Positions 19,240 through 49,972 of a DNA stretch of 64,000 bases are shown one piece after another. Source of the DNA: an uncultured Desulfobacter sp. (GTDB lineage Bacteria > Desulfobacterota > Desulfobacteria > Desulfobacterales > Desulfobacteraceae). The stretch's first letter is position 1, and each line of letters starts with the position of its first letter. The stretch lies in assembly GCA_963665095.1 (NCBI GenBank), contig OY762069.1, positions 4,800,001 through 4,864,000 of the forward strand, given 5' to 3'. Both the position numbers and the translations under genes were made by a program. Under the pieces are notes generated by a model. That model did not search any database, was not told the origin of the DNA, and saw only the letters and a list, made by a program, of their open reading frames with translations.

Positions 19240-19983
19240 TTAGATGGTGATATTCACCTTATCTGCATATGGTATAAACATCCTGGTGCCGCCGCCCTCC
19301 ATAATGGCGCTGATCAGACTTTGGTTTTCCCGGACAATGATACCTGATGCACAGGTGACAGGGGTGCCTTGGTAACATTCCGGGGCCAGCGGGGTGGAGG
19401 GTCCCAGCACAGCCACATGTTGGCAGCTGGCCGCATGAACCAGGAGATCATCAAAGGTTTGATTGATAATGGAGGTAGCTGTGATCAGGGCCACATCACA
19501 CTCCGGCAGCCGGTCAGGAATGCTATCTGACGGATGAATGCCGGAAGATGCGTCCGGGTGCATGTCAAAGACCGTCAGCTGGGCCCCACGTTTTTTGATT
19601 ACCGGTACCAGGGGCTTGAATTCGCCCACCATGCCGACTTTTATGCCCGGTTCCAGATGCAGGTGGTCCAGGATATCCCCGGTGGCGGAAGGGGTTGCCC
19701 GCCGGCTGAATATCGCATTGGCAACCGCTGTACACACGCTGTTGGCAAGGGGGCCTTTCCCTGCGAAATCAAGCAGCTCAGATACCTTTGAGCCTGCCAG
19801 GGGGCGTTTGGGAAGGTTGTGGGTACAGTCCCCTTTACCGGGGCTCCCTCTGAATATATAGGCCACACCGGCAGCACCGTTTTCAAGTTCTGCGCAACAA
19901 TAGGCCAGGCCCACATAAACAGCCTTTACCGTCTCATTTCCACCCCAATTTCTGGCCTGTTCCGCCAGTTTTTCTATAAACAT
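19240..19983 (-). CDS. DUF364/DUF4213 (enolase-N-like + Rossmann-like) protein
   Basis: VYVGLAY, TAVANA, KVGMVGEF.P, ITATSIINQT, VLGPSTPL; start MFIEKL after RBS GAGGG (the ORF-track extension is repeat-derived). Confidence 0.85.
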   Translation of the reverse strand: MFIEKLAEQARNWGGNETVKAVYVGLAYCCAELENGAAGVAYIFRGSPGKGDCTHNLPKRPLAGSKVSELLDFAGKGPLANSVCTAVANAIFSRRATPSATGDILDHLHLEPGIKVGMVGEFKPLVPVIKKRGAQLTVFDMHPDASSGIHPSDSIPDRLPECDVALITATSIINQTFDDLLVHAASCQHVAVLGPSTPLAPECYQGTPVTCASGIIVRENQSLISAIMEGGGTRMFIPYADKVNITI

Positions 19984-20016
19984 GATGTGTTCCCTCTTAT
20001 TAGTCTGCGTATGGAA

Positions 20017-20141
20017 GTGTTTGGGCGAAGAGTTGCCCAGATGCAAAGTGCAGAAAAATTTGCAACCGGAGCAACCTCTCGGTTGTGAGGATTGCAGATT
20101 TTTCTGCAACGCCGCAGGTGGGTGAGTCTTTGTTCAAACAC
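20017..20141. mobile_element. Palindromic miniature element, copy 1
   Basis: GTGTTTGGGCG...GTTCAAACAC ends; internal CAGATGCAA and GCAACGCCGCAGGTGG shared with 38701 and 44286 copies. Confidence 0.85.
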
Positions 20142-20964
20142 CTTCTTTTCGCATGGTTAGATACCGTATTATAAGCAGGCCCAGCAGCACGCCGTACACA
20201 AGAAAAAATATCCGGGCCAAAGGATTAATGCTGTGGTGAATTTCCACCCCGATGCGGTCCGAGTCCTTGGCAATGAAAAAACCAGCCAGAAAGAAATAGT
20301 TTGATCCCACACGCACCGGCGACATCATTTTCAGCTCCGTTGCCGGTACAGTCTCGTCTGCGCCCTTATTCACAGGGCGTGTTGTTTTCGTTACCTGGAT
20401 ATGGGCCAGGTTTTTCTCCTTTGAGAACTTTTTTGCCGGGATGGCAAAGCTTTTCTTTTTCCGGCCCTTTCCGTTTTCCCGGATCAGGGAAAGGTCACTG
20501 ACAAAAGAGACATCTTTGACTGTCACGGTAAATTCGCCCATTACTGCGGACTGTCCCGGATAAAGCTTGATGGGCTGGTGACGCTCAATCATGGTCATGT
20601 CCATGGCATGGAGCAGGATCACCACAAGGGCTGTGATGTGGATCAGGGTCATCTGGATGGATCTGCGCCGTTTTTCTCCTTCATGGCCTTTAAGCTTGCC
20701 AAGGATCTTAATCTGGGAATAGGTGCAGCAGGCCGTATTGATGAAAAGACAGGCCCCCACGGCAAAAAAGATAAGCAGCCAGGTCGGCAGCACAAATGTT
20801 TCAGTGATAAGCCCTATACAGTGGCGCAGGTGGGTGGTGTTCATCTCCCGGAAAACGTTATAATAGTCATCCACCGAAGTAAGACCGCTGCCAACGCCAC
20901 AGATCAGAGCCAGCAAAGCAAAGAAAAGGTAACTGGCCTTTAGTGAAAAAAAGAACGATTTCAT
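20134..20964 (-). CDS. ResB/Ccs1 (CcsB)-like membrane protein
   Basis: Three N-terminal TM helices with LFINTACCT and LIHITALVVIL signatures, periplasmic beta-rich domain, C-terminal TM; start MKSFFF overlapping upstream stop. Confidence 0.6.
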   Translation of the reverse strand: MKSFFFSLKASYLFFALLALICGVGSGLTSVDDYYNVFREMNTTHLRHCIGLITETFVLPTWLLIFFAVGACLFINTACCTYSQIKILGKLKGHEGEKRRRSIQMTLIHITALVVILLHAMDMTMIERHQPIKLYPGQSAVMGEFTVTVKDVSFVSDLSLIRENGKGRKKKSFAIPAKKFSKEKNLAHIQVTKTTRPVNKGADETVPATELKMMSPVRVGSNYFFLAGFFIAKDSDRIGVEIHHSINPLARIFFLVYGVLLGLLIIRYLTMRKEGV

Positions 20965-21728
20965 ACCTGCACCACCTTGGAAAAGATCATACCCGAGGCC
21001 ACCAGTGCCAGGGGCAGAAACAGGGCAAAGGCCTGGGCTTTGGCCGATGAAAAAACAGACCGGGGAACATGAAGGGCCACCATGAACAGGACAAAGACCA
21101 TGGCGGAGAATAAAAAGTTGCCGCTCCAGCGCCAGGTGGTGCCCCATCCCATGAAGCCCCAGTAGCAGCCGGCAATTTCACCGCCCAGAAAAATCAGGGC
21201 TGCCAGCATGGCTGCCTGTTTGGCCTCTGCCGTTGCCTGGGGCTTAAAGGTGCCTTTCCCCCAGAGAATGTCAGGGGCGCTTCCCAGGGCAAACAGGGTC
21301 AGGCCCAAGCTCAAAGGCCTGGAGAGAAAAAACGCTTTGGCATAAATATAACTCATCATAAAGGTGTCATGGCGGAACTCTTCAGGCACCATGGACAAAA
21401 GAGCTAAAAGAACCAGAAAGACCCCGCTTGCCCGCAGCCGCAGGCTTTGGCGGCCACGATCTGTCTTCAGGCAGAACGACTGCCAGATGCACAGGATAAG
21501 TCCTGCAAAGGTGAAATTGGGTGCAATTCCTGAAAGAGATGTCAGGCCGTACGCAGACAGAAAAAAGAAAGACTGCATGATCCAGCCAAGCCCCACCACG
21601 GGCCAGGCCACAGCCGCCAGCCGGTTTTTTCCGGCCACAACCGCCAGTATCCCCAAGATCACATTCAGCCGGGCACACATAAGATAGCCGGTCATGGGAT
21701 CAGACCATATTGAAAGTTCACACATCAT
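20961..21728 (-). CDS. CcsA/ResC-like (WWD-domain) membrane protein, degenerate
   Basis: GCYWGFMGWGTTWRWSGN resembles GxxWAxxxWGxxWxWD; downstream ALH histidine; multiple TM helices. Confidence 0.65.
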   Translation of the reverse strand: MMCELSIWSDPMTGYLMCARLNVILGILAVVAGKNRLAAVAWPVVGLGWIMQSFFFLSAYGLTSLSGIAPNFTFAGLILCIWQSFCLKTDRGRQSLRLRASGVFLVLLALLSMVPEEFRHDTFMMSYIYAKAFFLSRPLSLGLTLFALGSAPDILWGKGTFKPQATAEAKQAAMLAALIFLGGEIAGCYWGFMGWGTTWRWSGNFLFSAMVFVLFMVALHVPRSVFSSAKAQAFALFLPLALVASGMIFSKVVQV

Positions 21729-23073
21729 GTTCCTCGTTGTTTAAAAATCGGTTAATCTGTTTTGCTGCATTCGGATCAGATACCCGGACAATCACCGGGT
21801 CGGCAAGGAGCCAGCGGCGGCAGACAGCTTCAATGAATTCCGTACGGACCACCCAGATGTGGCGCAAGGTTTTCACAGAGAGCAGCGGCGAAAGATACGG
21901 GGCAAAGTTCTTCCCCTTGAGTTCAAAACGCCCCACTTCATCCACAACCACACAATGGCGGAAACTGTTTTCCAAAGGATCCAGAGCGGTTCGGGCCAGG
22001 GCCATCCCCTGTTCATCAAAAAGAAAATGGCTGGTAGGGGTATTGTTGGCCCGCCGGGCAAAGGGGGCAGACTGCTTTGTGGCAAGGCAGTGCAGGTCAC
22101 TTTGAAACCGAAGTCCCTCTTTGAAAAATCCCGGGCAGGTAAATCCGCCGAAATCCAGATGGGGGTTCTCTTTGATCACCTGGTGGAGCAGGGTGGTTTT
22201 TCCCTGGCCTGATTCCCCTGTGAGCAGCAGCACCCGGCCCTTGAAATCCGGGTGGACAAAGGCGGGTACAAGGCCTGGGGGGCCAGGGCCCCGGCTCTGC
22301 CAGGCCGCCATGCCGTACAGGCGGCTGATGGCCGGGCCGGTCAGGGTTTCCTGTACCGGGCCTGAATCCAGAATCCGTCCCCTGTGAAGGAGCACGGCCC
22401 GGTCGGCAAACATCAGGGCATGGTTGGGGTCGTGAAGGCAGGCCACCACGCAGGAGTTGTGATCCTTTGTCAGGGCTTTGAGCCAGGCCAGCATCCGGAA
22501 ACGGTTGCTGTAGTCCAGGTGGTTGGTGGGTTCATCCAGGAAAATGATCTTCCGGGACTGCACCAGGGCCCTTGCCAGCAGCACCATCTGTTTTTCCCCG
22601 CCGGAAAGATCCGTATAGGTTCTTTGGGCCAGATGGGATATCTGCAACTCTTCAAGCACGGCCCGGGCAGCTGTTTCATCCTCGTTTCCCGGTGCCCCGA
22701 AACTGCCTAAAAATACGGTGCGGCCCATGACCACCACCTCAAGCACGGAAAAGGGAAACATGTCCTCATGCTCCTGGGGCACAAAGCTGACCCGCCGGGC
22801 AATATCCCTGCGGCCGGCGGAACCCGGGTCCAGTCCGCCCACAAGAAGGTGGGCGGCGCTGCAGGGCTTTAAGCCCAGAAGACAGGAGAGCAAGGTGCTT
22901 TTGCCTGCCCCGTTGCGGCCCAGAACCGCCACAAACTCACCTGAATAAAAATCAAGGCTGATCTCTTTGAGCACCTGTCTGCCGGCATAGGAAAAATTTA
23001 AATATTTACACGAGACCAAAGGGTCTTTCATGGGATTTCCCGGGAGCGTGTTCATGGGATCTGTCATGCCCAT
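21718..23073 (-). CDS. FecE/BtuD-type ABC ATPase fused to a C-terminal THEP1/DUF2478-like NTPase
   Basis: GRNGAGKST, LSGGEKQ, LDEPTNHLD; second P-loop GESGQGKTT and VVVDEVGRFE. Confidence 0.88.
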   Translation of the reverse strand: MGMTDPMNTLPGNPMKDPLVSCKYLNFSYAGRQVLKEISLDFYSGEFVAVLGRNGAGKSTLLSCLLGLKPCSAAHLLVGGLDPGSAGRRDIARRVSFVPQEHEDMFPFSVLEVVVMGRTVFLGSFGAPGNEDETAARAVLEELQISHLAQRTYTDLSGGEKQMVLLARALVQSRKIIFLDEPTNHLDYSNRFRMLAWLKALTKDHNSCVVACLHDPNHALMFADRAVLLHRGRILDSGPVQETLTGPAISRLYGMAAWQSRGPGPPGLVPAFVHPDFKGRVLLLTGESGQGKTTLLHQVIKENPHLDFGGFTCPGFFKEGLRFQSDLHCLATKQSAPFARRANNTPTSHFLFDEQGMALARTALDPLENSFRHCVVVDEVGRFELKGKNFAPYLSPLLSVKTLRHIWVVRTEFIEAVCRRWLLADPVIVRVSDPNAAKQINRFLNNEEHDV

Positions 23074-24119
23074 CCCCTGTTTTTGTTTTTATACAGAAGA
23101 AAGGCAAATACCGGCCCGCCGATAAGCGAGGTGATCACCCCTAACGGCAGTTCGGAACTTAGGACGGACCGTGCAATATCATCGGCCAGAACCAGAAAGC
23201 TTGCGCCCAGAAGGGCGGAGCAGGGGATGAGCAGGCGGTGGTTGGGGCCCAGGATGGTTCTTACGATGTGGGGGATTACCAGCCCCACCCAGGCGATCTG
23301 TCCGCAGGAGGCCACGCATACCGCCACCACAAAGGAGCTCACCCCGATGAGAAAGAGCCGCAGCCCTCCGGGATTTACCCCCAGGGCCCGGGCCGCGTCA
23401 TCCCCTAAGGAGAGAACATTAAGCCGGTACCGGTAGAGGTGGAACACGAGGTAACCGCCAATCACCGCAGGCAGGATCTGGATGACATCCGGCCATGAGG
23501 CACCTGACAGGGAGCCCATGACCCAGAACACAATGGCGGGCAACTGCCCCAAAGGGTCTGCCACGGTTTTTACAATCATGAAAAATGCATGGAACAGGGA
23601 GCCTGTGATCACACCGGTGAGTACCAGTACCAGCACCCGGGATGTTTTCACGGCCCGGGCCATGGCAAGGGCCATGGAGACGGCCGTAACCCCCATGATA
23701 AAAGAGAGCAGGCGGACAACGAAAAAAGAGGTGCCCGGGATGACAAGTCCCAGGGCCGCCCCAAAAGTACACCCGGCTGCCACACCTAAAATGTCCGGTG
23801 AGACCAGGGGATTTCTGAATAACCCCTGGTATACCGCCCCGGATACGGACAGACCCGCACCCACCAGCAGAGCCATGAGAATCCTGGGAAACCGGATGAG
23901 CATCAGGACCCGTTCCTGTTCATCCAAACCTTGATAACTGCCTGACAGGATATCTGTTAAAAGGCCTGGAAACCGGACAAGGGCGTTGAGCACATGGGAA
24001 AATGAAATCTCCATGCGCCCGGTAAAACAGGAGATAAAAGCGGCAGCAATAAGCACACCCAGAAAGATAAGAGACACCTTGAGCGCGGAGCTTGCGGGTT
24101 TGGTCCCAGGCCTGTTCAT
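23064..24119 (-). CDS. FecCD/BtuC family permease (importer 1)
   Basis: RFPRILMALLVGAGL, FRNPLVSPDILGV, IAWVGLVIPH. Confidence 0.95.
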   Translation of the reverse strand: MNRPGTKPASSALKVSLIFLGVLIAAAFISCFTGRMEISFSHVLNALVRFPGLLTDILSGSYQGLDEQERVLMLIRFPRILMALLVGAGLSVSGAVYQGLFRNPLVSPDILGVAAGCTFGAALGLVIPGTSFFVVRLLSFIMGVTAVSMALAMARAVKTSRVLVLVLTGVITGSLFHAFFMIVKTVADPLGQLPAIVFWVMGSLSGASWPDVIQILPAVIGGYLVFHLYRYRLNVLSLGDDAARALGVNPGGLRLFLIGVSSFVVAVCVASCGQIAWVGLVIPHIVRTILGPNHRLLIPCSALLGASFLVLADDIARSVLSSELPLGVITSLIGGPVFAFLLYKNKNRGWA

Positions 24120-25120
24120 TGATCAACAGATCCTGTAACTAAGGGATGTTTTCGGCTGAAACCTTTGCCGAATATGGTATCATACAGGCGATTGATTTCC
24201 GCCTGGACCGTATCTTTCGGGAACAGATCCGGGTGGGTGCAGCCGGCCATCCATAAAATGCCTGCCATGGCCAAAGGAGAGGGAAAATCCCAATAGGTTT
24301 GGGCCGGTACCTCGAAAATGGCCCCTTTTTTTACGGCACTAAGCGCGGAAAATTCCTGGTTTTCAAGTTTTTGTTTCTCCTGCCGGGCAATTCTGTCTGA
24401 GGCGATAATCACCTCCGGGTTCCAGGACAGCAGCTGTTCCCGGCTCACGGTGATGAAAAATCCGTGGGTGTTCTCAGACACATTGGTACCGCCGGCTATT
24501 TTGATCATTTCGTGTTGCAGCATATCCCCGGAAACCGTGGTGAGCAGGCGGGAACCGGCATAGTACACCTTTTTTCGGGGACGTTGTTTTAAAGTGTGGG
24601 TCAGCCTTGCCTCAATGGCCTCCATGGCGCTGATGACGGCATCGGTATGCTTTGTGCGGCCCGACGCCCGGCCAATGAGATCCAGGGACTGTTTAACACC
24701 TGTCATGGTTTCCGGCACGATCACAATGGCTGGAACCCCCATTTTCGTCAGATGGTCTGCCAGCCGGATACCGTCCTTTTGACCGTACATGATCACAAGG
24801 TCCGGTTTTAAAGAAAAAATGGTTTCAAGACTTAACCCGACCGAGCGGTTTCCCACAAGCACGGGCGGGTGGTCCGGATCAACCAGGGCTTCATAGATGG
24901 AGGCGGTGCCGTCCTTGTTGGATGCACCCACAAGGGCGTCGGAAAGATCCGCGCAAAGGGCGAAAAGGGAGGCAGGAATAAAGGTGGTGACAACGCGGTT
25001 GACCGGCTGGGGGATGGAAACCTTGCGGCCGGCCTGGTCCGTCACAACAACTTCCGCACTTAAGCAGACCGTCTGCCAGCAGCAAACCATGGAAAAGACA
25101 AAATAGAGAATTTTTTTCAT
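24116..25120 (-). CDS. Class III (helical backbone) substrate-binding protein (importer 1)
   Basis: Signal peptide, TDQAGRKV, LKPDLVI, WNPEVII, YWDFPSP. Confidence 0.92.
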   Translation of the reverse strand: MKKILYFVFSMVCCWQTVCLSAEVVVTDQAGRKVSIPQPVNRVVTTFIPASLFALCADLSDALVGASNKDGTASIYEALVDPDHPPVLVGNRSVGLSLETIFSLKPDLVIMYGQKDGIRLADHLTKMGVPAIVIVPETMTGVKQSLDLIGRASGRTKHTDAVISAMEAIEARLTHTLKQRPRKKVYYAGSRLLTTVSGDMLQHEMIKIAGGTNVSENTHGFFITVSREQLLSWNPEVIIASDRIARQEKQKLENQEFSALSAVKKGAIFEVPAQTYWDFPSPLAMAGILWMAGCTHPDLFPKDTVQAEINRLYDTIFGKGFSRKHPLVTGSVDQ

Positions 25121-25188
25121 TAAAACTTCCCAAGTTTTTAAGAAAGCAGGATGTTAAAGGAAAAAATAGTCCAAAGCCTGCCTGACAA

Positions 25189-25224
25189 TTTTTAAGGTTA
25201 TGATCATTTTTAAAGTTATGATCA
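25189..25224. promoter_or_regulatory. 18-bp tandem direct repeat TTTTTAA(G/A)GTTATGATCA x2 in divergent promoter region
   Basis: Two adjacent copies with one mismatch. Confidence 0.55.
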
Positions 25225-25403
25225 AAGGTCGGGGGGTGAAAGAGCCTTTAATTCGCTCCCTACCTGCCCTTCTGTCACATCTGGCATAAATAGAAACTTT
25301 GCCGTCTAATGTCAATTTGAAATTGAAAATCAGGCTTGCGGATTCGCAATGCCCAAAATAGGTGTTGACAAGGCAAAATTACAAATAGTACATGATGGCC
25401 ATA

Positions 25404-25425
25404 TTTGACGTTTTTAAGCGTCAAA
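25404..25425. promoter_or_regulatory. Palindrome TTTGACG-N8-CGTCAAA, candidate operator
   Basis: Lies between a TTGACA at 25365 and the start of the rightward operon. Confidence 0.45.
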
Positions 25426-25464
25426 AGACGTTAATAAAAATAAAATTGCATTTTGGAAATAACT

Positions 25465-26262
25465 ATGACCACATTAGAGGTCAATCATCTCTATTTTAAT
25501 TACGACACTGCCAAGGTGTTAAAGGATGTCTCCTTTAACGCCGGGCCGGGAAAGGTTTTAGGCCTGCTTGGCCCCAATGCCTCGGGCAAAACCACCCTGT
25601 TTAAATGCATGAACGGAGTCCTTAACCCTGAAAAAGGCCATGTCAGCCTGTCCGGTCGGCCCATCGCGGCAATGTCCAGGAAAAATCTGTCCCGGCTCAT
25701 GGCGGTGGTGCCCCAGCAGACCGGGTCTGCGTTTTCGTTCACAGCCAGGGATATGGTGGTCATGGCCCGATCGGCGACGTTGTCCATGTGGCAGCGGCCG
25801 TCAAAAAAAGATTATGATGGTGCGGAGCAAGCCCTTGCGGACTTGGGGGCGGCAGGACTTTCATCGCGCATGTTCAGTGCCTTAAGCGGCGGCGAAAAAC
25901 AAATTGTTCTTCTGGCCCGGGCCATGTTTCAATCCCCGGCTGTTCTTCTTTTGGATGAGCCCACTGCCCATCTGGACTTTAAGAATCAGCATTTGATGCT
26001 TGATATGGTCAAAAGCGTGACCCTTAAGCAGGGCCTGACAACGGTTGTTACTTTGCATGATCCCAACCTTGCTTCGCGATACTGCGATGAAATTGTGATG
26101 ATTAAACAGGGACGGGTAATCGAATGCGGCCCTGTGAGGCATGTCCTCAGGGAGGATATTCTGGAGTCCGTGTACGGTATAAAAGTCATGGTGCAGAACC
26201 ACTGCCTTGGCAGGCACCTTGTCATTCCCCGGACAGATGCTGCCGGGGCCGTCATGTTTTAA
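25465..26262 (+). CDS. FecE/BtuD-type ABC ATPase (importer 2)
   Basis: GPNASGKTT, LSGGEKQ, LDEPTAHLD, LHDPNLA. Confidence 0.95.
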   Translation: MTTLEVNHLYFNYDTAKVLKDVSFNAGPGKVLGLLGPNASGKTTLFKCMNGVLNPEKGHVSLSGRPIAAMSRKNLSRLMAVVPQQTGSAFSFTARDMVVMARSATLSMWQRPSKKDYDGAEQALADLGAAGLSSRMFSALSGGEKQIVLLARAMFQSPAVLLLDEPTAHLDFKNQHLMLDMVKSVTLKQGLTTVVTLHDPNLASRYCDEIVMIKQGRVIECGPVRHVLREDILESVYGIKVMVQNHCLGRHLVIPRTDAAGAVMF

Positions 26263-26273
26263 GTGGAGACGGT

Positions 26274-27293
26274 GTGACTAAACAAACCCTCCTGTTTCCG
26301 TTGTTTTTCTTATGCTTGGGCTGCACTGTCGGGGTGGCCCTGTCCACGGGCAAATATCCCTTGGATCTTCCCACCCTGGGCCGGCTGATTTTTGGTGCCC
26401 TTGGTTTGAAAGAGCTGCCTGGGGATCTGGCCGGCCCCGGGCTTGTTCTCTGGTCCGTCCGGATGCCCAGGATCGTCATGGCGATCCTGGTGGGGGCAGG
26501 GCTGTCGGTTGCAGGCACCATGTTCCAGGGCCTGTTTAAGAACCCACTGGTATCGCCGGGAATCCTGGGTGTGACCTCCGGGGCCAACTTTGGTGCGGCC
26601 CTGGGATTGCTTTTCCTTGCCGGGAATGCCGTGGCCATCCAGGTGTCGGCCTTTTTCTGGGGCCTTGGTGCGGTATGGCTGACCTATGAGGTGGGCAAAC
26701 GGGGGGACCGGTCTGTCACAACCCTGGTTCTGGCCGGGGTCATTGTCTCTTCCCTTTTCATGGCCGGACTTTCCTATATCAAGTGTAAGGCCGATCCCTT
26801 GGGCCAACTCCCTGCCATTGTCTTCTGGACCATGGGCAGTTTCAACAGCGTCTCCTGGCAGGATGTGGCTGCCGGCGGAAGCCTGATCGCCGCAGGGCTG
26901 ATTGCCTCCTGTTTTTTTAGCTGGAGCCTTAACCCCATGGCCCTTGGGGAGGAGGAGGCGCTCTCTTTAGGGATTAATGTGGCAGGGCGCAGGGCTGTTT
27001 ATATTCTATTGGCCACCCTGATGGTATCTGCTGCCACAGCCCCCTGCGGCAGCATCGGGTGGGTGGGGCTTTTGGTCCCCCATATGGCCAGGATGCTGGT
27101 GGGGGCGCAGCACGAACGCCTGGTGCCCTTTGCAGGCATTCTGGGGGCGATTTTTATGCTGGTCATGGACACCATCGCCCGCATCCTGCCGGGCGGCGAG
27201 ATTCCTGTGGGAATATTAACCGCTGTGATTGGTGCCCCCTGTTTTGGGTTTCTTTTGATCCGGAACAGGACCGGTGTCTGGAATAACAAATAA
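26274..27293 (+). CDS. FecCD/BtuC family permease (importer 2)
   Basis: RMPRIVMAILVGAGL, FKNPLVSP, IGWVGLLVPH; GTG start after GGAG. Confidence 0.95.
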   Translation: MTKQTLLFPLFFLCLGCTVGVALSTGKYPLDLPTLGRLIFGALGLKELPGDLAGPGLVLWSVRMPRIVMAILVGAGLSVAGTMFQGLFKNPLVSPGILGVTSGANFGAALGLLFLAGNAVAIQVSAFFWGLGAVWLTYEVGKRGDRSVTTLVLAGVIVSSLFMAGLSYIKCKADPLGQLPAIVFWTMGSFNSVSWQDVAAGGSLIAAGLIASCFFSWSLNPMALGEEEALSLGINVAGRRAVYILLATLMVSAATAPCGSIGWVGLLVPHMARMLVGAQHERLVPFAGILGAIFMLVMDTIARILPGGEIPVGILTAVIGAPCFGFLLIRNRTGVWNNK

Positions 27294-27327
27294 TGAACTT
27301 TCCTGTATCAATTCCACGGAGATTTTT

Positions 27328-28431
27328 ATGAGGCAAAATAAAAAAAGAGGTTTGTCCCTTTGGCTGTTATTGGCAGTTATCAGGATTTTAACGTTCATGC
27401 TTTTTTCCGGCGCGGGTTCTCCGGTTTATGCGACGGAACAGGGGGTTCGGATGATCCGGGACCGGTCCGGCCGCACGGTCCAAATTCCTGAAACACCAAC
27501 GCACATCGCCTGTCTTTACGGGGCAAGCTATGAAAAGCTTCTGGCCCTTGGCGCCACCGACCGGATCTCCATGGTGGCCAACGTGGCCCTGCCCTGGAAT
27601 TTTGTGATCAACCCTAAGCTTTCTAAAATCCCGGTACTGGGCAGCTATGGAAGCCCGGATGTGGAGGCGTTGCTTCGCCTTAAAACAGATCTGGTGTTCT
27701 ATCATCCTTTTGCAAAGCAGATTGACCAGCTGACAGCGGCCCGGCTCCCAGTGGTGGTACCCTACAGCGGCAGTCAGCGCATGCATACCATGGACGCGTT
27801 CTTAGAGGACTGGTATGCACAGATCCGTTTCTATGGAGAGGTGCTGGGCGGGGATGCCATTGCCAGGGCCCGTGACTATTGCGCCTATGCAGACGAAAGG
27901 ATCCAAAAAGTCCTTGCCGTCACCTCCGCGATCCCTGAACAGCGCCGGCCAAAAGTGTTCTGGTACTGCGGTCAGGTCAGAGGTCCTTCAGGCACCCAGA
28001 CCCGCCATGCAACCGCGGACTGGCTTGTGACGGCGGCGGGCGGTGCCATGCTCACCCATGAGGAAGCTGCCTACTTTACCAGCGTCTCCACAGAAGAGTT
28101 GATTCTGTGGAATCCGGATATCATCCTGGTCAGCACCCTGCCGTCTCTGGATCCGGTGCTGTCCGATCCCCGGTTGAAAAACATCGCAGCAGTCCGGAAC
28201 CATAAGGTGTTCATGACCCCCCGGGGTCAGTTCTACTGGAGCCATTTTTCCACAGAGTCTTTTCTGTGCATCCTTTACATGGCCAAGCTGTTCCATCCGG
28301 ATGACTTTCAGGATCTGGATATGGTTGACGCGCTTTGTGACTATTACGTTAAATTTTACAATTACGATCTGACCCGGGACCAGGCAAAGCGGATACTGGC
28401 AAGCATGCCGCCTGATTCGCAAGACCATTAG
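27328..28431 (+). CDS. Class III substrate-binding protein (importer 2)
   Basis: N-terminal signal, DRSGRTV, WNPDIIL, AVRNHKV, YWSHFSTE. Confidence 0.9.
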   Translation: MRQNKKRGLSLWLLLAVIRILTFMLFSGAGSPVYATEQGVRMIRDRSGRTVQIPETPTHIACLYGASYEKLLALGATDRISMVANVALPWNFVINPKLSKIPVLGSYGSPDVEALLRLKTDLVFYHPFAKQIDQLTAARLPVVVPYSGSQRMHTMDAFLEDWYAQIRFYGEVLGGDAIARARDYCAYADERIQKVLAVTSAIPEQRRPKVFWYCGQVRGPSGTQTRHATADWLVTAAGGAMLTHEEAAYFTSVSTEELILWNPDIILVSTLPSLDPVLSDPRLKNIAAVRNHKVFMTPRGQFYWSHFSTESFLCILYMAKLFHPDDFQDLDMVDALCDYYVKFYNYDLTRDQAKRILASMPPDSQDH

Positions 28432-28563
28432 CCTTAACTATGTGAAACAGAGGGGCTCTTTGTAAATGGCTTCCTGTGGCACGCGTTTACTTCTCTATTA
28501 AAAAAATTGAGAAATACCCGGTCAGGTCTTTACCTTTAACAATAATTGATAGTATATAGCGGC

Positions 28564-28599
28564 TATGTCCAAATAGACACATATGTCCAAACAGACACA
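28564..28599. promoter_or_regulatory. 18-bp tandem repeat TATGTCCAAA(T/C)AGACACA x2, each containing TGTC-N6-GACA
   Basis: Seen directly ~330 bp upstream of the TonB receptor gene. Confidence 0.6.
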
Positions 28600-28641
28600 G
28601 TGAGTTTTGAAAGCGTTGAAGATGACTCAGTGACGCCTGAC

Positions 28642-28695
28642 GCGGATATTTCATTTCACATAACGGCAGGTACTCCTTCGTGAAATGTCCGGGCT
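28642..28695. repeat. Palindromic element related to 17094-17174 (opposite orientation)
   Basis: CGGATATTTCA ... TGAAATGTCCG arms. Confidence 0.6.
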
Positions 28696-28929
28696 GACCG
28701 TCTTTGGCCTTTCATTAAAATAAAATTGTAGAAAAACGGTTTCCTTTGTCCGGTTTCTGCGTTGGAAGAAAATGTTAATCCTTAAAATCAAGTTCTGCAT
28801 TCCAAAGGGTTAAATTTCATCCGCCTTAAAATCAAACAAAAGCAATCGGTTTTCCAAGCAGATAAACAGGCAATGTTTGATTGCCGATAAGATCGCATTA
28901 TAAATTTTTAAGCAAGCATGGAGGAATGT

Positions 28930-30969
28930 ATGAAGCTCACCCGAATTTCAGCGGCATTGGTTCTCGGTTTTATGCTCTGTATTTCGTCCCTGGCCTTAGC
29001 CCAGGATGACACTCAATCCCAGGAAGAGGTTTTTGACCTTGGTGATGTACTGATTCTTGGAAAAAGCGGAGATGCAGGACAGGCCACCACAACCAATGTT
29101 ATTAGTATGGAGGACATGAAACAGATTGGCGCGACCAATGTTGCTGATGCCCTGGAACAGGTTCCCGGCATTGACATTTCGATTCACCCGAAATCAGGTC
29201 CGCAGCTGAAAATGAGAGGGTATGGAGCGGATGAGATCAAGATCCTGATCGACGGGGTCCCGGCCTATGAAACCTACGACGGATACCTGGACCTGAGCCA
29301 GATCCCTGTGGACTCCATTGCAAAGATCGAGATTACCAAAGGCGTTGCATCGGCGCTTTACGGGGCCAATTCCATGGGTGGTGTTATCAACATCGTGACC
29401 AAAAAAGGGGGAAAAACTCCGAAAACCAATATCACCGCGTCTATCGGGGAGAACAGCACCCGGAATGTAACGGTTAGCACCAGCGGTTCCAAGAACCAAT
29501 TTAATTATGCATTATCCGGCTCTTTCAGGGAATCTGACGGCTGGGATGTCTCCGATGACTTTGACCCCAACAACACGGTTTCGGGAATTGGAACGGAATA
29601 TAATGAAGATGGCGGCACCCGGGACTTAAGTGAGTATACCTACAGAACCCTGAACGCAAAAGCCGGGTATGAATTTGCTGCCGACTCCAAGGTGTATCTC
29701 TCTTTTGACTATCATGACAATGACCGTGGCTGTCCCACATCCAGTGACCGCTACTGGGCCTATTCCGAATGGAAACAGTGGCATTTTAACCTGGTTGGTG
29801 AACATGCTGTTACCAGCAATATCAGTCTTAAAGGCCGATTATTTTACGTTAAACACGATGATACTCTGGAAGACGTGTCCTGGGATGATGATCACAGCAC
29901 CGGCAGGAAATGGTTTGAGAAAAGTTCTTATGAAGATGACAGCACCGGTGGTGAACTGCAGGCCTACGTCAACCTGACCGAGAACAACCTGTTGAAAATT
30001 GGAACCACCTATGTCCGGGACAATCATACCCAGCAGGATTTCCTGGATGAAGACTGCATGGGGGTCATCAGATGGGGAGATCCTGTGGGCTACCAGCCCG
30101 AAGAAGATTATGCTGCAGATACCTATTCTTTTGCCATTGAAGATGAGCTTCGTTTCTTTAATAACAAGCTGACCCTGCTTGCCGGATTAAGCTATGATGT
30201 TTTCAGCCCGGAAGAAGCCAATGGCCAGCCCGTTCCAGACTCCACAGACACCATTAATCCCCAGGCAGGCCTGGTTTATGATGTGGATAATACCCTGCAG
30301 TTGCACACCTCCGTGGGTAAAAAGACTCGGTTTCCCCGTCTCAAGGAACTTTACAGTGAGATGGCCGGAGGAAATCCCGAACTGGAAGCAGAAGAATCCA
30401 TCAACTATGAAATCGGTCTGGACAAATCCTTTACCGATAAATTAAACGTTACGGTCGCACTTTTCTACAGTGACATTGACAATAAAATCGACGAGGATGA
30501 AAACGACGACGGAGACAATATCTACGTCAACAAGGGGGAGGCCAAAAATAAGGGTCTGGAAGCCAGTGTGCATTACGTCACTCCGTTTAATTTAAACGTC
30601 GGCGTTGGATACACCTACCTGAAATCAACGGAAAAAGCAGATGAGAACAGCCCGGAACTGGACGCGGATTATACACCTAAACATAAGCTGACCTTTGATC
30701 TGAGGTATCGGTTCGACTTTGGCCTGACAGCATCCGGGCAGGTGATCTGCACCGGTAAACAGATCGAATACGATGACAACGATGACAAACAGGATGTCGG
30801 GGGCTTCACTATTGTGAACCTGCGGCTGAGCCAGGAACTGACCATGTTTAAATCTCTGACGCCCGAGATTTTTCTTGAAGCGGACAACCTTTTTGATAAA
30901 AATTATTATGAAGGAAACGGTCCGACACAGGGAAGAAGCATTCTTCTGGGTGCCAGTATGACATTCTGA
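28930..30969 (+). CDS. TonB-dependent outer-membrane receptor
   Basis: Signal peptide, plug (ADALEQVPG, ILIDGVP, SALYGANSMGGVINIVTK), GNPELEAE, NLFDKNY, terminal Phe. Confidence 0.96.
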   Translation: MKLTRISAALVLGFMLCISSLALAQDDTQSQEEVFDLGDVLILGKSGDAGQATTTNVISMEDMKQIGATNVADALEQVPGIDISIHPKSGPQLKMRGYGADEIKILIDGVPAYETYDGYLDLSQIPVDSIAKIEITKGVASALYGANSMGGVINIVTKKGGKTPKTNITASIGENSTRNVTVSTSGSKNQFNYALSGSFRESDGWDVSDDFDPNNTVSGIGTEYNEDGGTRDLSEYTYRTLNAKAGYEFAADSKVYLSFDYHDNDRGCPTSSDRYWAYSEWKQWHFNLVGEHAVTSNISLKGRLFYVKHDDTLEDVSWDDDHSTGRKWFEKSSYEDDSTGGELQAYVNLTENNLLKIGTTYVRDNHTQQDFLDEDCMGVIRWGDPVGYQPEEDYAADTYSFAIEDELRFFNNKLTLLAGLSYDVFSPEEANGQPVPDSTDTINPQAGLVYDVDNTLQLHTSVGKKTRFPRLKELYSEMAGGNPELEAEESINYEIGLDKSFTDKLNVTVALFYSDIDNKIDEDENDDGDNIYVNKGEAKNKGLEASVHYVTPFNLNVGVGYTYLKSTEKADENSPELDADYTPKHKLTFDLRYRFDFGLTASGQVICTGKQIEYDDNDDKQDVGGFTIVNLRLSQELTMFKSLTPEIFLEADNLFDKNYYEGNGPTQGRSILLGASMTF

Positions 30970-31000
30970 TGCCTTGTATGAATATTTTGGACACCAATGA

Positions 31001-32125
31001 GTGTACAAAGTGAGATTCTGTGCATATGAAAACATCCGGACCGGGATCCCGGTCCGGATTATTTTTTTAATTGCCGCAGGTTTGCTGCTGGCAACAGTGA
31101 GGCTTTCGTGGGCTCAGATCTCGTTTCTGGATGCAGCCGGCCGCAGGGTTGATCTGCCCGCCCCTCCGGACCGGATTGTGGTGGCCGGTTTTGCCCCTTT
31201 CATTCCCCTTCATATGCTTTATATGTTTGAAGAGGCCCGGGAAACGCTTGTGGGGTATGAGCAAAGATTCAAGGGCGAAAACCGGTTTCTGGGCCTGATA
31301 GATCAAAATTTTCATGAGAAAACCGCGTTGAACTCCAATCCGGCTGTGGAGTCCATCATTGCCCTGAAGCCGGATCTTGTCATTGCCAAAGCCGGCAACC
31401 AGAAACGATTTTCTAAACTGCTTTCTCCTGTGGGCATTCCTGTGATGTATGTGGGCGGGGAAAGCCCTGAACTTTTTTTATCAGATATTCAAAATCTGGG
31501 GCAGGTTTTAGACAATCCGGAACGGGCCCGTGCCATTGTTGCCTATTACAGGGAAAAGCTGGCCCTGATCCGGCAAAAAACCGAAAAGATCCCACAGAAA
31601 AACAGACCAGGGGTTCTGGTCCTTGAGTACTCCAACCGGGGAAAAGCCATTGCTTTAAATGTTCCGGCCCGTTCCTGGATACAGACCCGCCAGGCCGAGA
31701 TGGCCGGTGGCCATCCGGTATGGACCGATGCGCCGGCTGCACAGGAAGGGTGGCAGATTACCGGATTTGAACAGATCGCCCGATGGAATCCGGATAAAAT
31801 TTTTATGGTGGTCTGGTACCGGCTTCAGGGGCCCAAGGTGCTTGAGGATCTATACACGGATGACAAGTGGCAACAGCTAAAGGCGGTTCAGGCGAACCAG
31901 CTGTGGCTGTTCCCCCAGGATCTGTACGGCTGGGATTCCATGAGTCCCCGCTGGATTCTCGGGGCCCTGTGGATGAACCGGATGATCTGTCCTGAAAAAT
32001 ACAGGGCAGATGAGTTTTCACTGGAGACCATGGTGTCACAGTTCTTTAAAAGGCTTTACTTCATGGATGATGCTGCCGTTCGTACCCATATTCTGCCGGA
32101 GATTGCGCCATATGCCGTGGAGTAG
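31001..32125 (+). CDS. Class III substrate-binding protein (importer 3); start uncertain
   Basis: DAAGRRV, ESIIALKPDLVI, EQIARWNPDKI, GWDSMSPR. Confidence 0.9.
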   Translation: MYKVRFCAYENIRTGIPVRIIFLIAAGLLLATVRLSWAQISFLDAAGRRVDLPAPPDRIVVAGFAPFIPLHMLYMFEEARETLVGYEQRFKGENRFLGLIDQNFHEKTALNSNPAVESIIALKPDLVIAKAGNQKRFSKLLSPVGIPVMYVGGESPELFLSDIQNLGQVLDNPERARAIVAYYREKLALIRQKTEKIPQKNRPGVLVLEYSNRGKAIALNVPARSWIQTRQAEMAGGHPVWTDAPAAQEGWQITGFEQIARWNPDKIFMVVWYRLQGPKVLEDLYTDDKWQQLKAVQANQLWLFPQDLYGWDSMSPRWILGALWMNRMICPEKYRADEFSLETMVSQFFKRLYFMDDAAVRTHILPEIAPYAVE

Positions 32126-33107
32126 GTTCAATGGCAGGCATGTATGGATTGTCAGTGCCCTGCTGCTGGCAGGTTCCGTATTCCTGGGCCGTTATCCAGC
32201 CCCTTTTATCACCACTGTCAGCGACATCCTGAACGATGACCTGGTGTTGAAAGTGATCATGGACATCCGTGTTCCCAGAATTCTGACCGCCTTTACAGCC
32301 GGGATGGTCTTTGCCGCTGCCGGTACGGTGTTTCAGATGGTATTCAGGAACCCCCTGGTGGACGCAGGCTTTTTAGGTGTGTCCGGAGGTGCCGCCTTTG
32401 GTGCCTCCCTGGGCATTGTTCTTCTGGGCGGGACCGTGGCTGCGGTGCAGGGCTGTGCGGCTCTTTTTGCCATGTCAGGACTTTGCTTTGCCTGGATCAT
32501 TGCCGCAAGAATTCGCTTCGGGGACTGGGTGTTGCGCCTGATCCTGTCAGGCATTGCCGTGTCCGCCCTGTTTGCCTCCGGAACCGGGCTGCTCAAATAT
32601 ATGGCGGATCCACTGCGGGAACTGCCGGAACTTACCTTCTGGCTTCTGGGCGGGCTTTGGGGGATACACTGGAATGATACCGCCCAGATCCTTATCATAT
32701 GTATTCCCTGCCTTGTGATCATCTATTTGTTCAGGTGGCGGCTGAACCTTTTGTCCATGCAGGATCAGACCATTTTCTCTTTGGCCACGCATCCGTCAAG
32801 GGAGCGGATTCTTCTTCTGCTCACCGCTGTAATCGCCGTGTCCGCTGTGGTTTCCAAAACCGGACAGGTCGGGTGGGTCGGGCTGATTGTTCCCCACATT
32901 GCCAGGAAAATCGTGGGCTCGGATGCCCAGAATGCACTGCCCTGCGCCCTGCTGCTGGGCGGGTTTTTTCTGCTCTTCTGTGATGATGTGTCAAGAACTC
33001 TGCTGTCCGGAGAGATTCCCATTGGTATTCTCACCTCTTTTTTAGGGGCAGGTCTTTTTCTGATTCTTTTGACCCGGCGGCAGATCCGGTTGGGAAAACG
33101 CTCATGA
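32112..33107 (+). CDS. FecCD/BtuC family permease (importer 3)
   Basis: IRVPRIL, FRNPLVD, VGWVGLIVPHIAR. Confidence 0.94.
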   Translation: MPWSRFNGRHVWIVSALLLAGSVFLGRYPAPFITTVSDILNDDLVLKVIMDIRVPRILTAFTAGMVFAAAGTVFQMVFRNPLVDAGFLGVSGGAAFGASLGIVLLGGTVAAVQGCAALFAMSGLCFAWIIAARIRFGDWVLRLILSGIAVSALFASGTGLLKYMADPLRELPELTFWLLGGLWGIHWNDTAQILIICIPCLVIIYLFRWRLNLLSMQDQTIFSLATHPSRERILLLLTAVIAVSAVVSKTGQVGWVGLIVPHIARKIVGSDAQNALPCALLLGGFFLLFCDDVSRTLLSGEIPIGILTSFLGAGLFLILLTRRQIRLGKRS

Positions 33108-33907
33108 CCCCGGCTGTCTCTTTACAAAGCGTAAGCTTTGGATACGACCATGCCCACAGCCGGGACAAAGACCCGGATGCCCCAGGGAAACTGACGCTGT
33201 CGGATCTCTCATTTGAAATCAGTAAAGGCTCGGTTACGGCCCTGCTAGGTGCCAACGGCGTGGGAAAAACCACACTTCTCTATCTTCTGCTGGATCTTTA
33301 CCCGCCCTCAAGCGGTACTATTCAGCGGTTTGCGGCAGACGGGACACTGTGTGAGGCACAAGCCGTTAAAAAACTGATGGGCATGGTGTCCCAGGAAGAG
33401 TCCATCCCCTTTGACCTGAGTGTGGAGGAGTACGTGCTTCTGGGGCGGGCCCCGCACTTAAAGCTTCTGGAGCTGCCCAAAAAGCTGGACAGGGAGATTG
33501 TCATGACCGCACTGAACACCGTGGGCATGGCTCATCTGGCCGGCCATGCCGCCACCCGGATCAGCAGCGGGGAAAAGCAGCTGGCCGGTATGGCCAGGGT
33601 GTTGGCCCAGTCCCCTGAGATCCTGCTCTTTGATGAGCCCTGCTCCCATCTGGACTTGATCAATACGCGCAGGACGCTGTCAATTATGAAAAACATTGCC
33701 CGGAAGGGGCACACCGTTATATTCACCACCCATGATCCCAATGCGGCAGCTGCCATTGCCGATCATGTCATACTTTTATACAAAGGCCGGATCATCGGGG
33801 AAGGTACCGTGTCCGAGACCCTGACCAGCCCGCTGTTAAGCCGGACCTACGGCGATGTTGTGGAAGTCACCCAGACGTCAAAGGGGCCGGTGGTCCTGGC
33901 CATATGA
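33104..33907 (+). CDS. FecE/BtuD-type ABC ATPase (importer 3)
   Basis: GANGVGKTT, ISSGEKQ, FDEPCSHLD, THDPN. Confidence 0.94.
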   Translation: MTPAVSLQSVSFGYDHAHSRDKDPDAPGKLTLSDLSFEISKGSVTALLGANGVGKTTLLYLLLDLYPPSSGTIQRFAADGTLCEAQAVKKLMGMVSQEESIPFDLSVEEYVLLGRAPHLKLLELPKKLDREIVMTALNTVGMAHLAGHAATRISSGEKQLAGMARVLAQSPEILLFDEPCSHLDLINTRRTLSIMKNIARKGHTVIFTTHDPNAAAAIADHVILLYKGRIIGEGTVSETLTSPLLSRTYGDVVEVTQTSKGPVVLAI

Positions 33908-34018
33908 CGGCTGCGGTGGGACCGGATCGGGGCTTTCTCCCTGGGCCGGCCCGCAAAAGATATGGAAGCTTTCATTTGAAGCCCAATAGTTAAGAGTTGA
34001 AAAATATAAAGGAGGAAA

Positions 34019-34879
34019 ATGGAAAAGCTAACCGACTGGAAGAACCTGTGGCATGCGTTGTCTGAGATCCAGGACCGGTCTTTTACCCGGGAAAAGGAAG
34101 CTGCCACGAACGATGTCTGGAAACATAAGGCAAAGGAGTTCGACAAACTGGTGGAAGACCGATGGGCCAAACCAGATTCATCCAGGGATTTTCTCATCCG
34201 GAAATTAAAGGAGAATCCTGGCTCAACCCTGCTGGATATCGGTGCCGGAACCGGGAAGTGGTCACTGCTCTGTGCGCCCTGGGCAAAAAAGGTCACGGCC
34301 CTTGAACCTTCTTTGTCCATGCAGGCGGTACTCAAGGAAAAAATAGACAAGGACGGGGTGGACAATATCGAGATTGTCACGGAGTCCTGGCCGCCGGAAA
34401 AGAAGGATGTTCCGGATCAGAAAGAATTGGTGGAGCCCCATGATTTTATCCTTACCTCTCACTCCATGTACGGGGTCGGGGATTTTGAAGCCTTTATCAG
34501 GGCCATGAACCAGTATGCCGTAAAGGGCTGTATTATGGTGATGCGGGCCCCGCTTGCCGATGCCGTCATGGCCAAAGCCGCTTCCAGGGTATGGGGACAG
34601 CCCTATGACAGCCCTAATTTTCAAATCGCTTACAATATCCTGCTGGGCATGGATATCTATGCCGATGTGGTCTTTGAGGAAAAGGGATCATGGCAGGGCT
34701 GGCACAATGACTCTTTTGAGACGGCCCTGGATGAGTTGAAAAGCCGTCTGGACATTGTGGATGATTCGTCCCATGATGCGTTTTTGACCGGGCTTCTTGA
34801 AAAGAACCTGATCGTGGAACCGGATGGGGTCCGATGGCCTGCGGCCAACCGGTCGGCCCTGGTGTACTGGGAGGTTTGA
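34019..34879 (+). CDS. Class I SAM-dependent methyltransferase
   Basis: LLDIGAGTG, VTALEPS motifs; RBS GGAGG. Confidence 0.92.
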   Translation: MEKLTDWKNLWHALSEIQDRSFTREKEAATNDVWKHKAKEFDKLVEDRWAKPDSSRDFLIRKLKENPGSTLLDIGAGTGKWSLLCAPWAKKVTALEPSLSMQAVLKEKIDKDGVDNIEIVTESWPPEKKDVPDQKELVEPHDFILTSHSMYGVGDFEAFIRAMNQYAVKGCIMVMRAPLADAVMAKAASRVWGQPYDSPNFQIAYNILLGMDIYADVVFEEKGSWQGWHNDSFETALDELKSRLDIVDDSSHDAFLTGLLEKNLIVEPDGVRWPAANRSALVYWEV

Positions 34880-39040: not shown

Positions 39041-39349
39041 ATGGCTTTTTATGGTTTAACGGACGAAGCAATTGCCACAGAGATTGGCCGGCGGCTGAAA
39101 ACGCTGCGGCTGAATAAAAATTACAGCCAGGAGGAGATGATCGAAAAGACCGGATTGTCCATCAAGGCGATCCGAAATGCGGAGAAGGGGAAAAGCACGT
39201 TGGCAACTTACATTGCTGTTTTACGGGCGTTAAATGCCCTTGATGCCCTGGAGAATTTCATCCCTGAGACACGGATCAGCCCGTTGCAGCTGGCTAAAAT
39301 GAATGGCAAACAGCGGTTAAAAGCATCGGGAAAAAGGAGTGATAGTTGA
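39041..39349 (+). CDS. hipB: XRE-family HTH antitoxin (HipB-like)
   Basis: IGRRLKTLRLNKNYSQEEM..TGLS...IRNAEKG; overlaps hipA start. Confidence 0.85.
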   Translation: MAFYGLTDEAIATEIGRRLKTLRLNKNYSQEEMIEKTGLSIKAIRNAEKGKSTLATYIAVLRALNALDALENFIPETRISPLQLAKMNGKQRLKASGKRSDS

Positions 39350-44134: not shown

Positions 44135-44285
44135 TTTGTTTCTCCTTATTATGATGATTTAAATCATTAAATTGTTCAGTTCGGGTCTAAAAATTATTGT
44201 TCCTAGGCTCGTGGGAAGGAATTAAAACGGTCCCAATTAAAACGGTTCAGATTTAAACTCTTCCAAGCAAAACGTTCCGGGGGAG

Positions 44286-44411: not shown

Positions 44412-44413
44412 GT

Positions 44414-45730: not shown

Positions 45731-45759
45731 TTTATTTCCTTGCTATCTTTCAAAGTGCT

Positions 45760-48536: not shown

Positions 48537-48555
48537 TTTATCTGTCCTTTGCTTT

Positions 48556-49932: not shown

Positions 49933-49972
49933 AAGTTTCTCCTGGTGCTTTTTTATCTTAAAGTTTCAACTG

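Follow-up and report, generated by a model that had tools for sequence, protein, structure and literature searches.

A CcsA/ResB-like protein pair in a Desulfobacter importer operon: a possible accessory of molybdenum or tungsten acquisition

Two overlapping genes at 20134..21728 of a 64,000-nucleotide stretch of DNA from an uncultured Desulfobacter sp. (assembly GCA_963665095.1, contig OY762069.1, positions 4,800,001 to 4,864,000; the whole stretch is hereafter the window) encode small membrane proteins within the operon of an ATP-binding cassette (ABC) importer. By the fold of their structural models, the two proteins are relatives of the cytochrome c maturation proteins CcsA and ResB, and they are predicted to form one membrane complex. 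On balance, we consider it somewhat probable that the pair is an accessory of molybdenum (Mo) or tungsten (W) acquisition, acting with the importer of its operon, and not a cytochrome c synthase. This assignment draws on the context of the family, namely modABC operons, ModE boxes and TunR-like regulators of relatives, together with a binding protein resembling MolA and the genomic context published for DUF364. The superfamily itself is well known; the new part is a branch without periplasmic ligands in Mo-linked operons. A search of the open-access literature, which did not cover subscription journals or supplements, returned no description of such a pair in association with ModE-controlled, modABC, nif or TonB-importer operons.

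Operon, fold and predicted complex

Six genes run head to tail on the minus strand from 25120 to 19240, with the binding protein first and the DUF364 protein last:

24116..25120, minus strand, Peripla_BP_2 periplasmic binding protein of a type II ABC importer (PF01497, E 4.5e-18)
23064..24119, minus strand, FecCD-type permease (PF01032, E 6e-84)
21718..23073, minus strand, ABC ATPase with a C-terminal NTPase_1 (THEP1-like) fusion (ABC_tran 118.8 bits, NTPase_1 50.4 bits)
20961..21728, minus strand, CcsA-like membrane protein of 255 amino acids with a haem-handling-protein fold (structure match)
20134..20964, minus strand, short ResB/CcsB-like partner of 276 amino acids (structure match, co-fold)
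19240..20109, minus strand, DUF4213+DUF364 protein, 'putative heavy-metal chelation' (PF04016, E 3e-39; PF13938, E 3e-10)

Pfam places ABC_tran at residues 35-184 of the ATPase and NTPase_1 at residues 282-412, and the DUF364 open reading frame (ORF) probably starts at the ATG at 19983. The CcsA-like and ATPase genes overlap by 11 nt, and the ATG of the ResB-like gene overlaps the stop codon of the CcsA-like gene upstream (ATGA). Although the longest ORF in the ResB-like frame would encode 337 amino acids (to 21147), homologues of 251-276 amino acids fit the 276-residue start. An original prediction, made from the sequence, had described membrane proteins of 255 and 276 residues with particular motifs, translationally coupled to an ABC importer and followed by DUF364, with a short ResB-like partner and no CXXCH protein in the island. 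These descriptions hold throughout: the ORFs carry the motifs (CYWGFMGWGTTWRWSGNF and a later ALHVP in the CcsA-like protein, INTACCT and LIH..LLH in the ResB-like protein), the gene overlaps and Pfam neighbours are as given, the canonical ResB of this genome has 467 residues, and no ORF of the island (18 in all, 19240-38708) contains CXXCH. The sole C..C[HK] match in the island, CSGCK, lies in the DUF364 ORF, within an N-terminal extension that is probably not translated.

The profile searches and structural comparison that the original prediction had proposed gave different answers, the profiles remaining below cut-off and the structures matching. Against Pfam Cytochrom_C_asm (PF01578), the CcsA-like protein scores 13.5 bits (E 0.056), below the cut-off of 29.9; its best NCBIfam match is ccmC (E 2e-4, 21.3 bits against a cut-off of 186), and a profile of 50 homologues matched no PDB chain. 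The ResB-like protein matched nothing in Pfam or NCBIfam, including ResB (PF05140), and its family profile found no relevant PDB chain. In contrast, the model of the CcsA-like protein, built with the 50-homologue alignment (predicted local distance difference test, pLDDT, 91.4), aligns over 249 residues with residues 604-902 of CcsBA (7s9y) at Z 19.2 and a root-mean-square deviation of 3.8. CcmF (6ZMQ) is an equally good match at Z 19.1, the next match falls to Z 10.6, and Foldseek agrees. Compared with the genome's own CcsA by hhalign, the CcsA-like protein aligns over 200 columns (E 7.8e-5, probability 62%).

For the ResB-like model (pLDDT 90.3), the three top Foldseek matches are CcsBA open (7s9y, E 4.6e-4), CcmF (6zmq) and CcsBA closed (7s9z), with E values up to 3.2e-3 and TMq of 0.34-0.47. 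The model shows the topology of ResB, with a pair of helices at the N terminus, a His in the third helix, then a periplasmic domain and a last helix at the C terminus, giving four membrane helices in all with a much reduced periplasmic beta domain of ~110 amino acids. In the nearest Atlas clusters, 35-53% of members carry PF05140, and the hidden Markov model (HMM) of the ResB-like family finds the genome's canonical ResB in a three-sequence search (E 1e-6). In addition, the ResB-like partner of a sister family described below reaches 43.4 bits to PF05140 and 44 bits to the HMM of the window's family.

Co-folding of the pair with haem included gave an ipSAE of 0.86, compared to 0.00 for the best of three controls; the ipSAE mark behind this pass is one that 116 of 157 solved complexes attain, as do 2 of 215 mismatched pairs. 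Between runs, at least 94% of contacts agree, the partner pLDDT is at least 82, and the runs carry no information on haem position. Because a like complex, CcsBA, has already been solved, the pass may lean on it, and the co-fold speaks for likeness rather than as proof of binding.

Conserved residues and distribution of the family

The cited parts of a review (PMC10663686) describe three haem-handling subfamilies that share four core helices, a WWD loop and two periplasmic His (P-His1 and P-His2, the active-site ligands according to reviews), with CcsBA and CcmF additionally carrying two membrane His. We counted the corresponding residues over 37 family members from genome loci, which span two phyla and were aligned with the genome's canonical CcsA, a HemX-like paralogue and the sister family; the 50-row alignment of the CcsA-like family (A1) has eight invariant columns. 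Among the 37 members, F133, G187, W190, W199, W201 and the membrane His H220, which aligns with the LHL of canonical CcsA, are invariant, while W195 occurs in 28 and E184, a residue without counterpart in canonical CcsA, in 34. In the ResB-like partner, W62, N76 and H109 are present in all 37 and H119 in 35.

The Trp-rich loop of the CcsA-like protein (W190-F205) is one of the places where the family departs from canonical CcsA. The canonical CcsA of this genome reads WGKYWSWDPKETW and the window protein reads WGTTWRWSGNFLF over the same stretch, such that the Trp residues of WGKYWSWDPKE are retained and Asp-Pro-Lys-Glu becomes Ser-Gly-Asn-Phe (WRWS-GNF), a replacement already noted in the original prediction. 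The position of the WWD Asp is Ser, Asn, Gly or Thr in 37/37 members. P-His1, the His of IAHV in canonical CcsA, is Phe in 28/37, the window protein among them, and His in eight. P-His2 is absent: canonical CcsA ends in GLHSYA, whereas the CcsA-like protein ends ~30 residues after the membrane His with a tail devoid of His. The mapping of His ligands that had been suggested as a check thus shows the membrane His retained and P-His1 and P-His2 lost in the window protein. Judged against the review's definition, the family has the core and the membrane His, a modified loop and neither periplasmic ligand.

CcsBA of H. hepaticus (7S9Y/7S9Z) is the best structural match for both window proteins, sharing with them the Trp-rich periplasmic loop, one membrane His per half (H220 and H109 in the window pair) and, in its ResB part, four membrane helices with a periplasmic beta domain. 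Sequence identity is 10-12%, the periplasmic domain of the window partner is less than half the size (~110 against more than 250 amino acids in CcsBA), H119 and E184 are added as conserved residues, and the genes lie in importer operons, not beside cytochromes.

The CcsA-like family comprises 40 clusters in a collection of 5.8 billion proteins, all of 188-265 amino acids, with 85 representatives at E ≤ 1e-3. Among species-representative genomes, it turned up at 27 places (Desulfobulbales, Desulfobacterales, one Desulfovibrio, 12 Shewanella species and one Ferrimonas) and in 23 of 401 sampled genomes of the phylum, corresponding to 18 of 255 genera. Loci were gathered in two sets. The two genes are adjacent in 20 of 21 first-set loci, the exception being cut by a contig end (their order is reversed in L028), and in all 20 loci fetched from the second set. 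Gene maps leave aside six near-duplicate Shewanella loci (L019, L020, L022, L023, L024 and L026), and the fetched set leaves aside four matching genomes with contig-end or weak matches (G034, G123, G023 and G171).

A window-type gene order (TonB-dependent receptor, binding protein, FecCD, ABC+NTPase_1, CcsA-like, ResB-like) is seen in Desulfobulbales, Shewanella, Ferrimonas and Desulfovibrio, and is often followed by a TonB2-type set (DUF3450, long ExbB, ExbB, ExbD, TonB, TPR). The transporter parts of these operons are orthologous, with binding proteins 34-57% and permeases 48-70% identical. An NTPase_1 relative, fused or as a separate ORF, occurs in 11 of 14 first-set and 4 of 20 second-set loci, and DUF364 accompanies the pair in five loci (the window, L011, L109, L110 and L111).

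Phylogeny (IQ-TREE, 51 CcsA-like sequences) separates the window's family of 34 rows from canonical CcsA, the riboswitch-linked sister family and three weak matches at 99/95; the tree was rooted at its midpoint, and no direction of change is therefore claimed. Within the family, a clade with a CXXCH partner branches first, and modABC-linked and window-type loci are sisters (99/91). The window groups with Desulfobacula L010 and with loci of Desulfocapsa, Desulfobulbus and Desulfotalea, next to Shewanella and Ferrimonas (100/98); its clade has 17 rows. The three weak matches to the profile, L114-L116, were rejected as family members and not counted, since they fall with canonical CcsA in the tree. 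They represent a short CcsA/ResB-like type with Gln in place of the invariant Glu and an HxRY motif, adjoin multihaem cytochromes c and ABC exporters (ABC_membrane domains), and are probably a dedicated cytochrome maturation pair.

Molybdenum and tungsten context

Complete modABC genes share the pair's operon in 4 of the 20 second-set loci, and their ModA, ModB and ModC products score above NCBIfam cut-offs:

L097, nifE-nifN-nifB-x-pair-modABC
L098, modE-pair-modABC
L102, modE-pair-modABC
L109, modABC-DUF364-pair-methylase-like

From the leaders of L098 and L102 we derived a Mo-box pattern (CGNTAT, N8-14, [AT]TANCG), which matches 21 times across 1.09 Mb of fetched DNA. Eleven matches are 24 bp long and sit immediately upstream of the operon that holds the pair in 7 of the 20 loci (L098, L102, L104, L105, L107, L109 and L113); the other 10 are scattered. 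The 24-bp sites match the span of the Escherichia coli ModE consensus, ATCGNTATATA-N6-TATATANCGAT, as quoted in PMC545781. ModE-N-like genes are found at L035, L098 and L102, and at L035 such a gene precedes the locus together with a gene for a WtpC-like TOBE ATPase. At L030 and L031, HTH_17+PBP_like genes, an architecture that we take to be that of the tungstate-responsive regulator TunR, stand divergent from the receptor gene of window-type operons. The parts of these operons (L030, L031 and L035) are orthologous to those of the window, with a binding protein 41% and a permease 51-56% identical. The sister family served as a control, and none of its 12 loci carries any Mo marker.

The binding protein of the window points in the same direction. 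By sequence score, its nearest solved sequences are 4hn9 and 4ovk (structural genomics, ~1e-31), then MolA HI_1472 (E 3.9e-20, 75 bits) and then the nickel-binding 4ino; BtuF reaches only ~1e-10 and a haem binder 3e-5, and siderophore binders are likewise far lower. MolA is the binding protein of MolBC-A, described in the cited part of PMC4031551 as a type II molybdate importer, and section 3.3 of PMC2954201 places DUF364 next to genes for tungstate, molybdate, vanadium and iron transport. MolBC-A (HI1470-72; molybdate/tungstate) belongs to the same importer class as that of the window, consisting of Peripla_BP_2, FecCD and ABC components. We know of no TonB-dependent receptor, NTPase_1 fusion, DUF364 or CcsA/ResB-like partner for MolBC-A.

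Several observations weigh against a role in Mo or W acquisition, beginning with regulation at the window operon itself. The Mo-box pattern has no match in the window, no Mo regulator gene adjoins the operon, and no significant motif is common to the window leader and the genome's modA promoter (65 of 200 shuffles score as high). The genome's modABC genes, which are guarded by an HTH_3+PBP_like regulator, also lack a match to the pattern, so its absence at the window operon is weak evidence. Across the 14 first-set loci scanned there is no Mo-box match in promoter position, and the few matches lie far away; the window's 17-row clade is less tied to Mo than the rest of the family, its regulator links being L030, L031 and L035. 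The binding-protein evidence is soft, insofar as the closest sequences, 4hn9 and 4ovk, have no ligand known to us and MolA comes third. No chemistry links the machinery to an oxyanion, nor can we name a chemical reason for such a link, and the pair has no conserved neighboring genes for the biosynthesis of a carrier molecule. Conservation of the Trp residues and membrane His argues that a haem-like molecule is still bound, which would fit a tetrapyrrole role as well. Finally, the His at P-His1 in relatives that neighbor a CXXCH protein (see below) suggests that some members of the family may still act as haem lyases.

Other sequence elements of the leaders are recorded here in their own right. 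The window leader contains the following repeat:

25188..25225, minus strand, tandem direct repeat ATGATCATAACYTTAAAAAT in two copies, in the leader between divergent operons, possible operator

The repeat is perfect to near-perfect, with a unit of 18-20 bp, and has 2 matches in the window against none in 100 shuffles. No Rfam family matches at 25188..25225, and the repeat does not recur elsewhere in the window; it may be an operator for some regulator. A promoter 10-mer, ATAACGATAA, and its overlapping neighbors are shared by only L013, L030 and L031, and are absent from the window. The Shewanella leaders (L016-L027, alignment A3) contain, ~150-350 nt upstream of the receptor gene, a conserved block AGACAAATTA..CAACTTGTCC..GACTAATTGTC with repeated GACAA/TTGTC elements and with neither a Fur box nor a riboswitch.

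How a haem-handling fold might assist an importer can be drawn in two ways, both of which we hold tentatively and neither of which reaches the level of probable. In the favored variant, modeled on CcsBA, a planar ligand would be passed outward via a channel lined by H220 and H109/H119, and presented on the Trp-rich loop beneath the small beta cap. Without axial His no iron would be held there, and the ligand could capture a metal or hand one over. The ligand would then return by way of the TonB-dependent receptor, binding protein and ABC permease, to be processed in the cytoplasm by the NTPase_1 domain and DUF364. The second variant, given similar weight, takes its model from the fixed membrane b-haem of CcmF, whose membrane His hold a stable haem according to the cited parts of PMC10663686: the membrane His of the pair would hold a fixed b-haem, and electrons would be relayed to a periplasmic partner. 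CcmF is, however, much larger than the window pair, retains the WWD motif and both P-His, and has CcmH and CcmE as its partners. A precedent for a WWD protein associated with an ABC transporter is CcmABCD, in which the two are mechanically coupled (PMC9616876, in the part cited), and to whose CcmC the best NCBIfam match of the CcsA-like protein corresponds. CcmABCD differs in having an exporter-type CcmAB and a CcmC with both P-His, compared to a type II importer with binding protein in the window.

A more elaborate version of Mo or W acquisition, which we regard as unlikely, would make the pair a CcsBA branch stripped of its iron ligands and recruited into a scavenging shuttle. The pair would export a metal-free planar carrier, possibly derived from a tetrapyrrole; periplasmic tetrapyrrole-methylase-like and SUOX-like proteins, or binding proteins, would handle the carrier; and the TonB-dependent receptor and ABC importer would return it loaded, for DUF364 and NTPase_1 to unload in the cytoplasm.

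Alternative explanations, neighboring genes and significance

The alternative that survives best, although we consider it improbable, is that the pair serves as an accessory when a tetrapyrrole (haem, a corrinoid or another macrocycle) is imported or handled by an importer of the BtuCDF/HmuTUV class, with the Trp-rich loop receiving the macrocycle at the periplasmic face. Importers of this class carry haem, B12 and siderophores, and the haem-contacting Trp residues of CcsBA are conserved. Furthermore, five relatives in the window's family lie beside periplasmic tetrapyrrole-methylase-like proteins. A parallel comes from this genome (G000:C1, one contig of 6.9 Mb), which has four relevant loci: canonical ResB and CcsA, a CcsA-like gene beside hemA, a third CcsA/ResB-like pair, and the window pair. 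A cobalamin riboswitch (121.8 bits) immediately precedes the third pair, in an operon (G000:C1:226041-232507, locus L009:8041-14507) encoding a CcsA-like protein, a short ResB-like protein, a binding protein, FecCD, an archaeal corrinoid-type ATPase and a radical SAM/SPASM protein, with a BtuFCD-like importer. Of 301 genomes sampled in the phylum, 19 have relatives of this sister family, and 7 of 10 of its loci scanned with flanks of up to 8 kb carry a cobalamin riboswitch. Some sister-family loci also carry CobN-type chelatases.

The sister family resembles the window pair in its short, overlapping CcsA-like and ResB-like genes within a TonB/type II ABC uptake operon. It differs, however, in retaining WxWDD and mostly P-His1, in scoring above Pfam cut-offs and in its riboswitch control, and in the tree a 99/95 split separates it from the window's family. 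The binding proteins of the two are unrelated, with no detectable similarity (17-25 bits), and the window's binding protein is only weakly similar to BtuF and the haem binder. Mo markers are frequent in the window's family and absent from the riboswitch-linked one, and both axial His ligands are lost from the window pair. No riboswitch was detected in the window or in six related loci (L010, L011, L013, L014, L015 and L017); no Fur box within 6 mismatches of the 19-bp consensus was found ahead of 17 related receptor genes or within the leader of the window; and no TonB-dependent receptor of the related loci reached an NCBIfam subfamily cut-off.

These results bear on the central proposal of the original prediction, that a haem channel had been repurposed either for another tetrapyrrole or metal complex or for a non-canonical attachment motif. 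Repurposing itself is supported by the fold, the lost ligands, the lack of a local client and a canonical maturation system elsewhere in the genome, where the suggested scan found adjacent genes for ResB (467 amino acids, 267 bits) and CcsA (277 amino acids, 197 bits). Another tetrapyrrole has no direct tie to the window's clade, which lacks both riboswitch and Fur box. The loss of both periplasmic His ligands makes a non-canonical attachment motif unlikely.

Known CcsBA paralogues include enzymes that each serve a single client, such as Wolinella NrfI and CcsA1, and the window pair could likewise be a minimal cytochrome c synthase reserved for one special client whose gene lies elsewhere in the genome. 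The membrane His are indeed invariant, and at nine loci genes for a TonB-dependent receptor and a periplasmic protein with a Sec signal come after the pair. This periplasmic protein is composed of two SUOX-like halves (Oxidored_molyb, 33-43 bits), with one conserved CXXCH between the halves in eight of the nine ORFs. Examples of this protein family are:

L099:12748-14613, CXXCH SUOX-like protein
L103:4296-6074, CXXCH SUOX-like protein
L105:4263-6068, CXXCH SUOX-like protein
L112:12556-13608, CXXCH SUOX-like protein
L034:3200-4225, CXXCH SUOX-like protein

Seven of the eight family members with His at P-His1 come from these loci. Despite these links, we judge a dedicated synthase to be quite improbable. 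The window's clade has neither P-His1 nor P-His2, the pair resides in an importer operon at every locus of that clade, the island has no CXXCH, and the genome already possesses canonical ResB and CcsA. A search with one query for the relatives' CXXCH client found none in this genome or in five genomes with window-type operons.

The SUOX-like family always adjoins a TonB-dependent receptor and the CcsA/ResB-like pair, in some cases behind ModE boxes. In three loci the SUOX-like protein is fused to a tetrapyrrole-methylase-like domain, and in two further loci this domain is a separate protein; the one copy inspected, at L109, has a signal peptide. Fused to a Sec-exported protein, the methylase-like domain would be periplasmic, where no S-adenosylmethionine is expected.

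Decay of a duplicated ResB/CcsA operon into a functionless remnant, which the scores below Pfam and NCBIfam cut-offs and the loss of the hallmark Asp and both periplasmic His might suggest, is scarcely credible and already contradicted by conservation, given intact and translationally coupled frames, confident models of both proteins, six invariant columns in 37 members from two phyla, constant pairing of the genes and presence in 23 of 401 genomes.

Beyond the operon, the window between 25453 and 38708 encodes three further FecCD-type importers and one TonB-dependent receptor. The first of these importers is arranged as ATPase-permease-binding protein, the second as TonB-dependent receptor-binding protein-permease-ATPase, and the third lies between genes for a CbiT/CpaM-like methyltransferase and an AmmeMemoRadiSam-like radical SAM enzyme. 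The only Fur-box-like site of the window, a weak one at 28768, lies upstream of the receptor gene of another transporter. Genes for a HipB-like HTH protein and a HipA-like kinase (toxin-antitoxin) occupy 39041-40671, between the importer island and the nif cluster. The latter, at 42687-53383, is a complete Mo-nitrogenase cluster (nifV-like, nifB, nifN, nifE, nifK, nifD, two P-II genes and nifH), and two moeA genes, one fused to a PBP_like domain, lie ~7.5-10.5 kb past the end of the window (G000:C1:4867420-4870673). The nif cluster and the moeA genes add some support for a role of the pair in Mo acquisition.

Haem-handling proteins are a study model for the movement of haem across membranes, and the present family adds a widespread branch that lacks both periplasmic His and travels with metal importers instead of cytochromes. 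A role in Mo or W acquisition has not been described for the haem-handling protein family. The ModE boxes and the modABC and nif operons of relatives point to an unrecognized step in Mo or W acquisition, which would concern anaerobes dependent on molybdo- and tungsto-enzymes and nitrogenase. If true, the shuttle would be the first 'molybdophore' route assembled from cytochrome-biogenesis parts, within the ModE regulon. The Shewanella species that carry the cluster are genetically manipulable, such that a role of the pair in Mo or W acquisition may be tested there.

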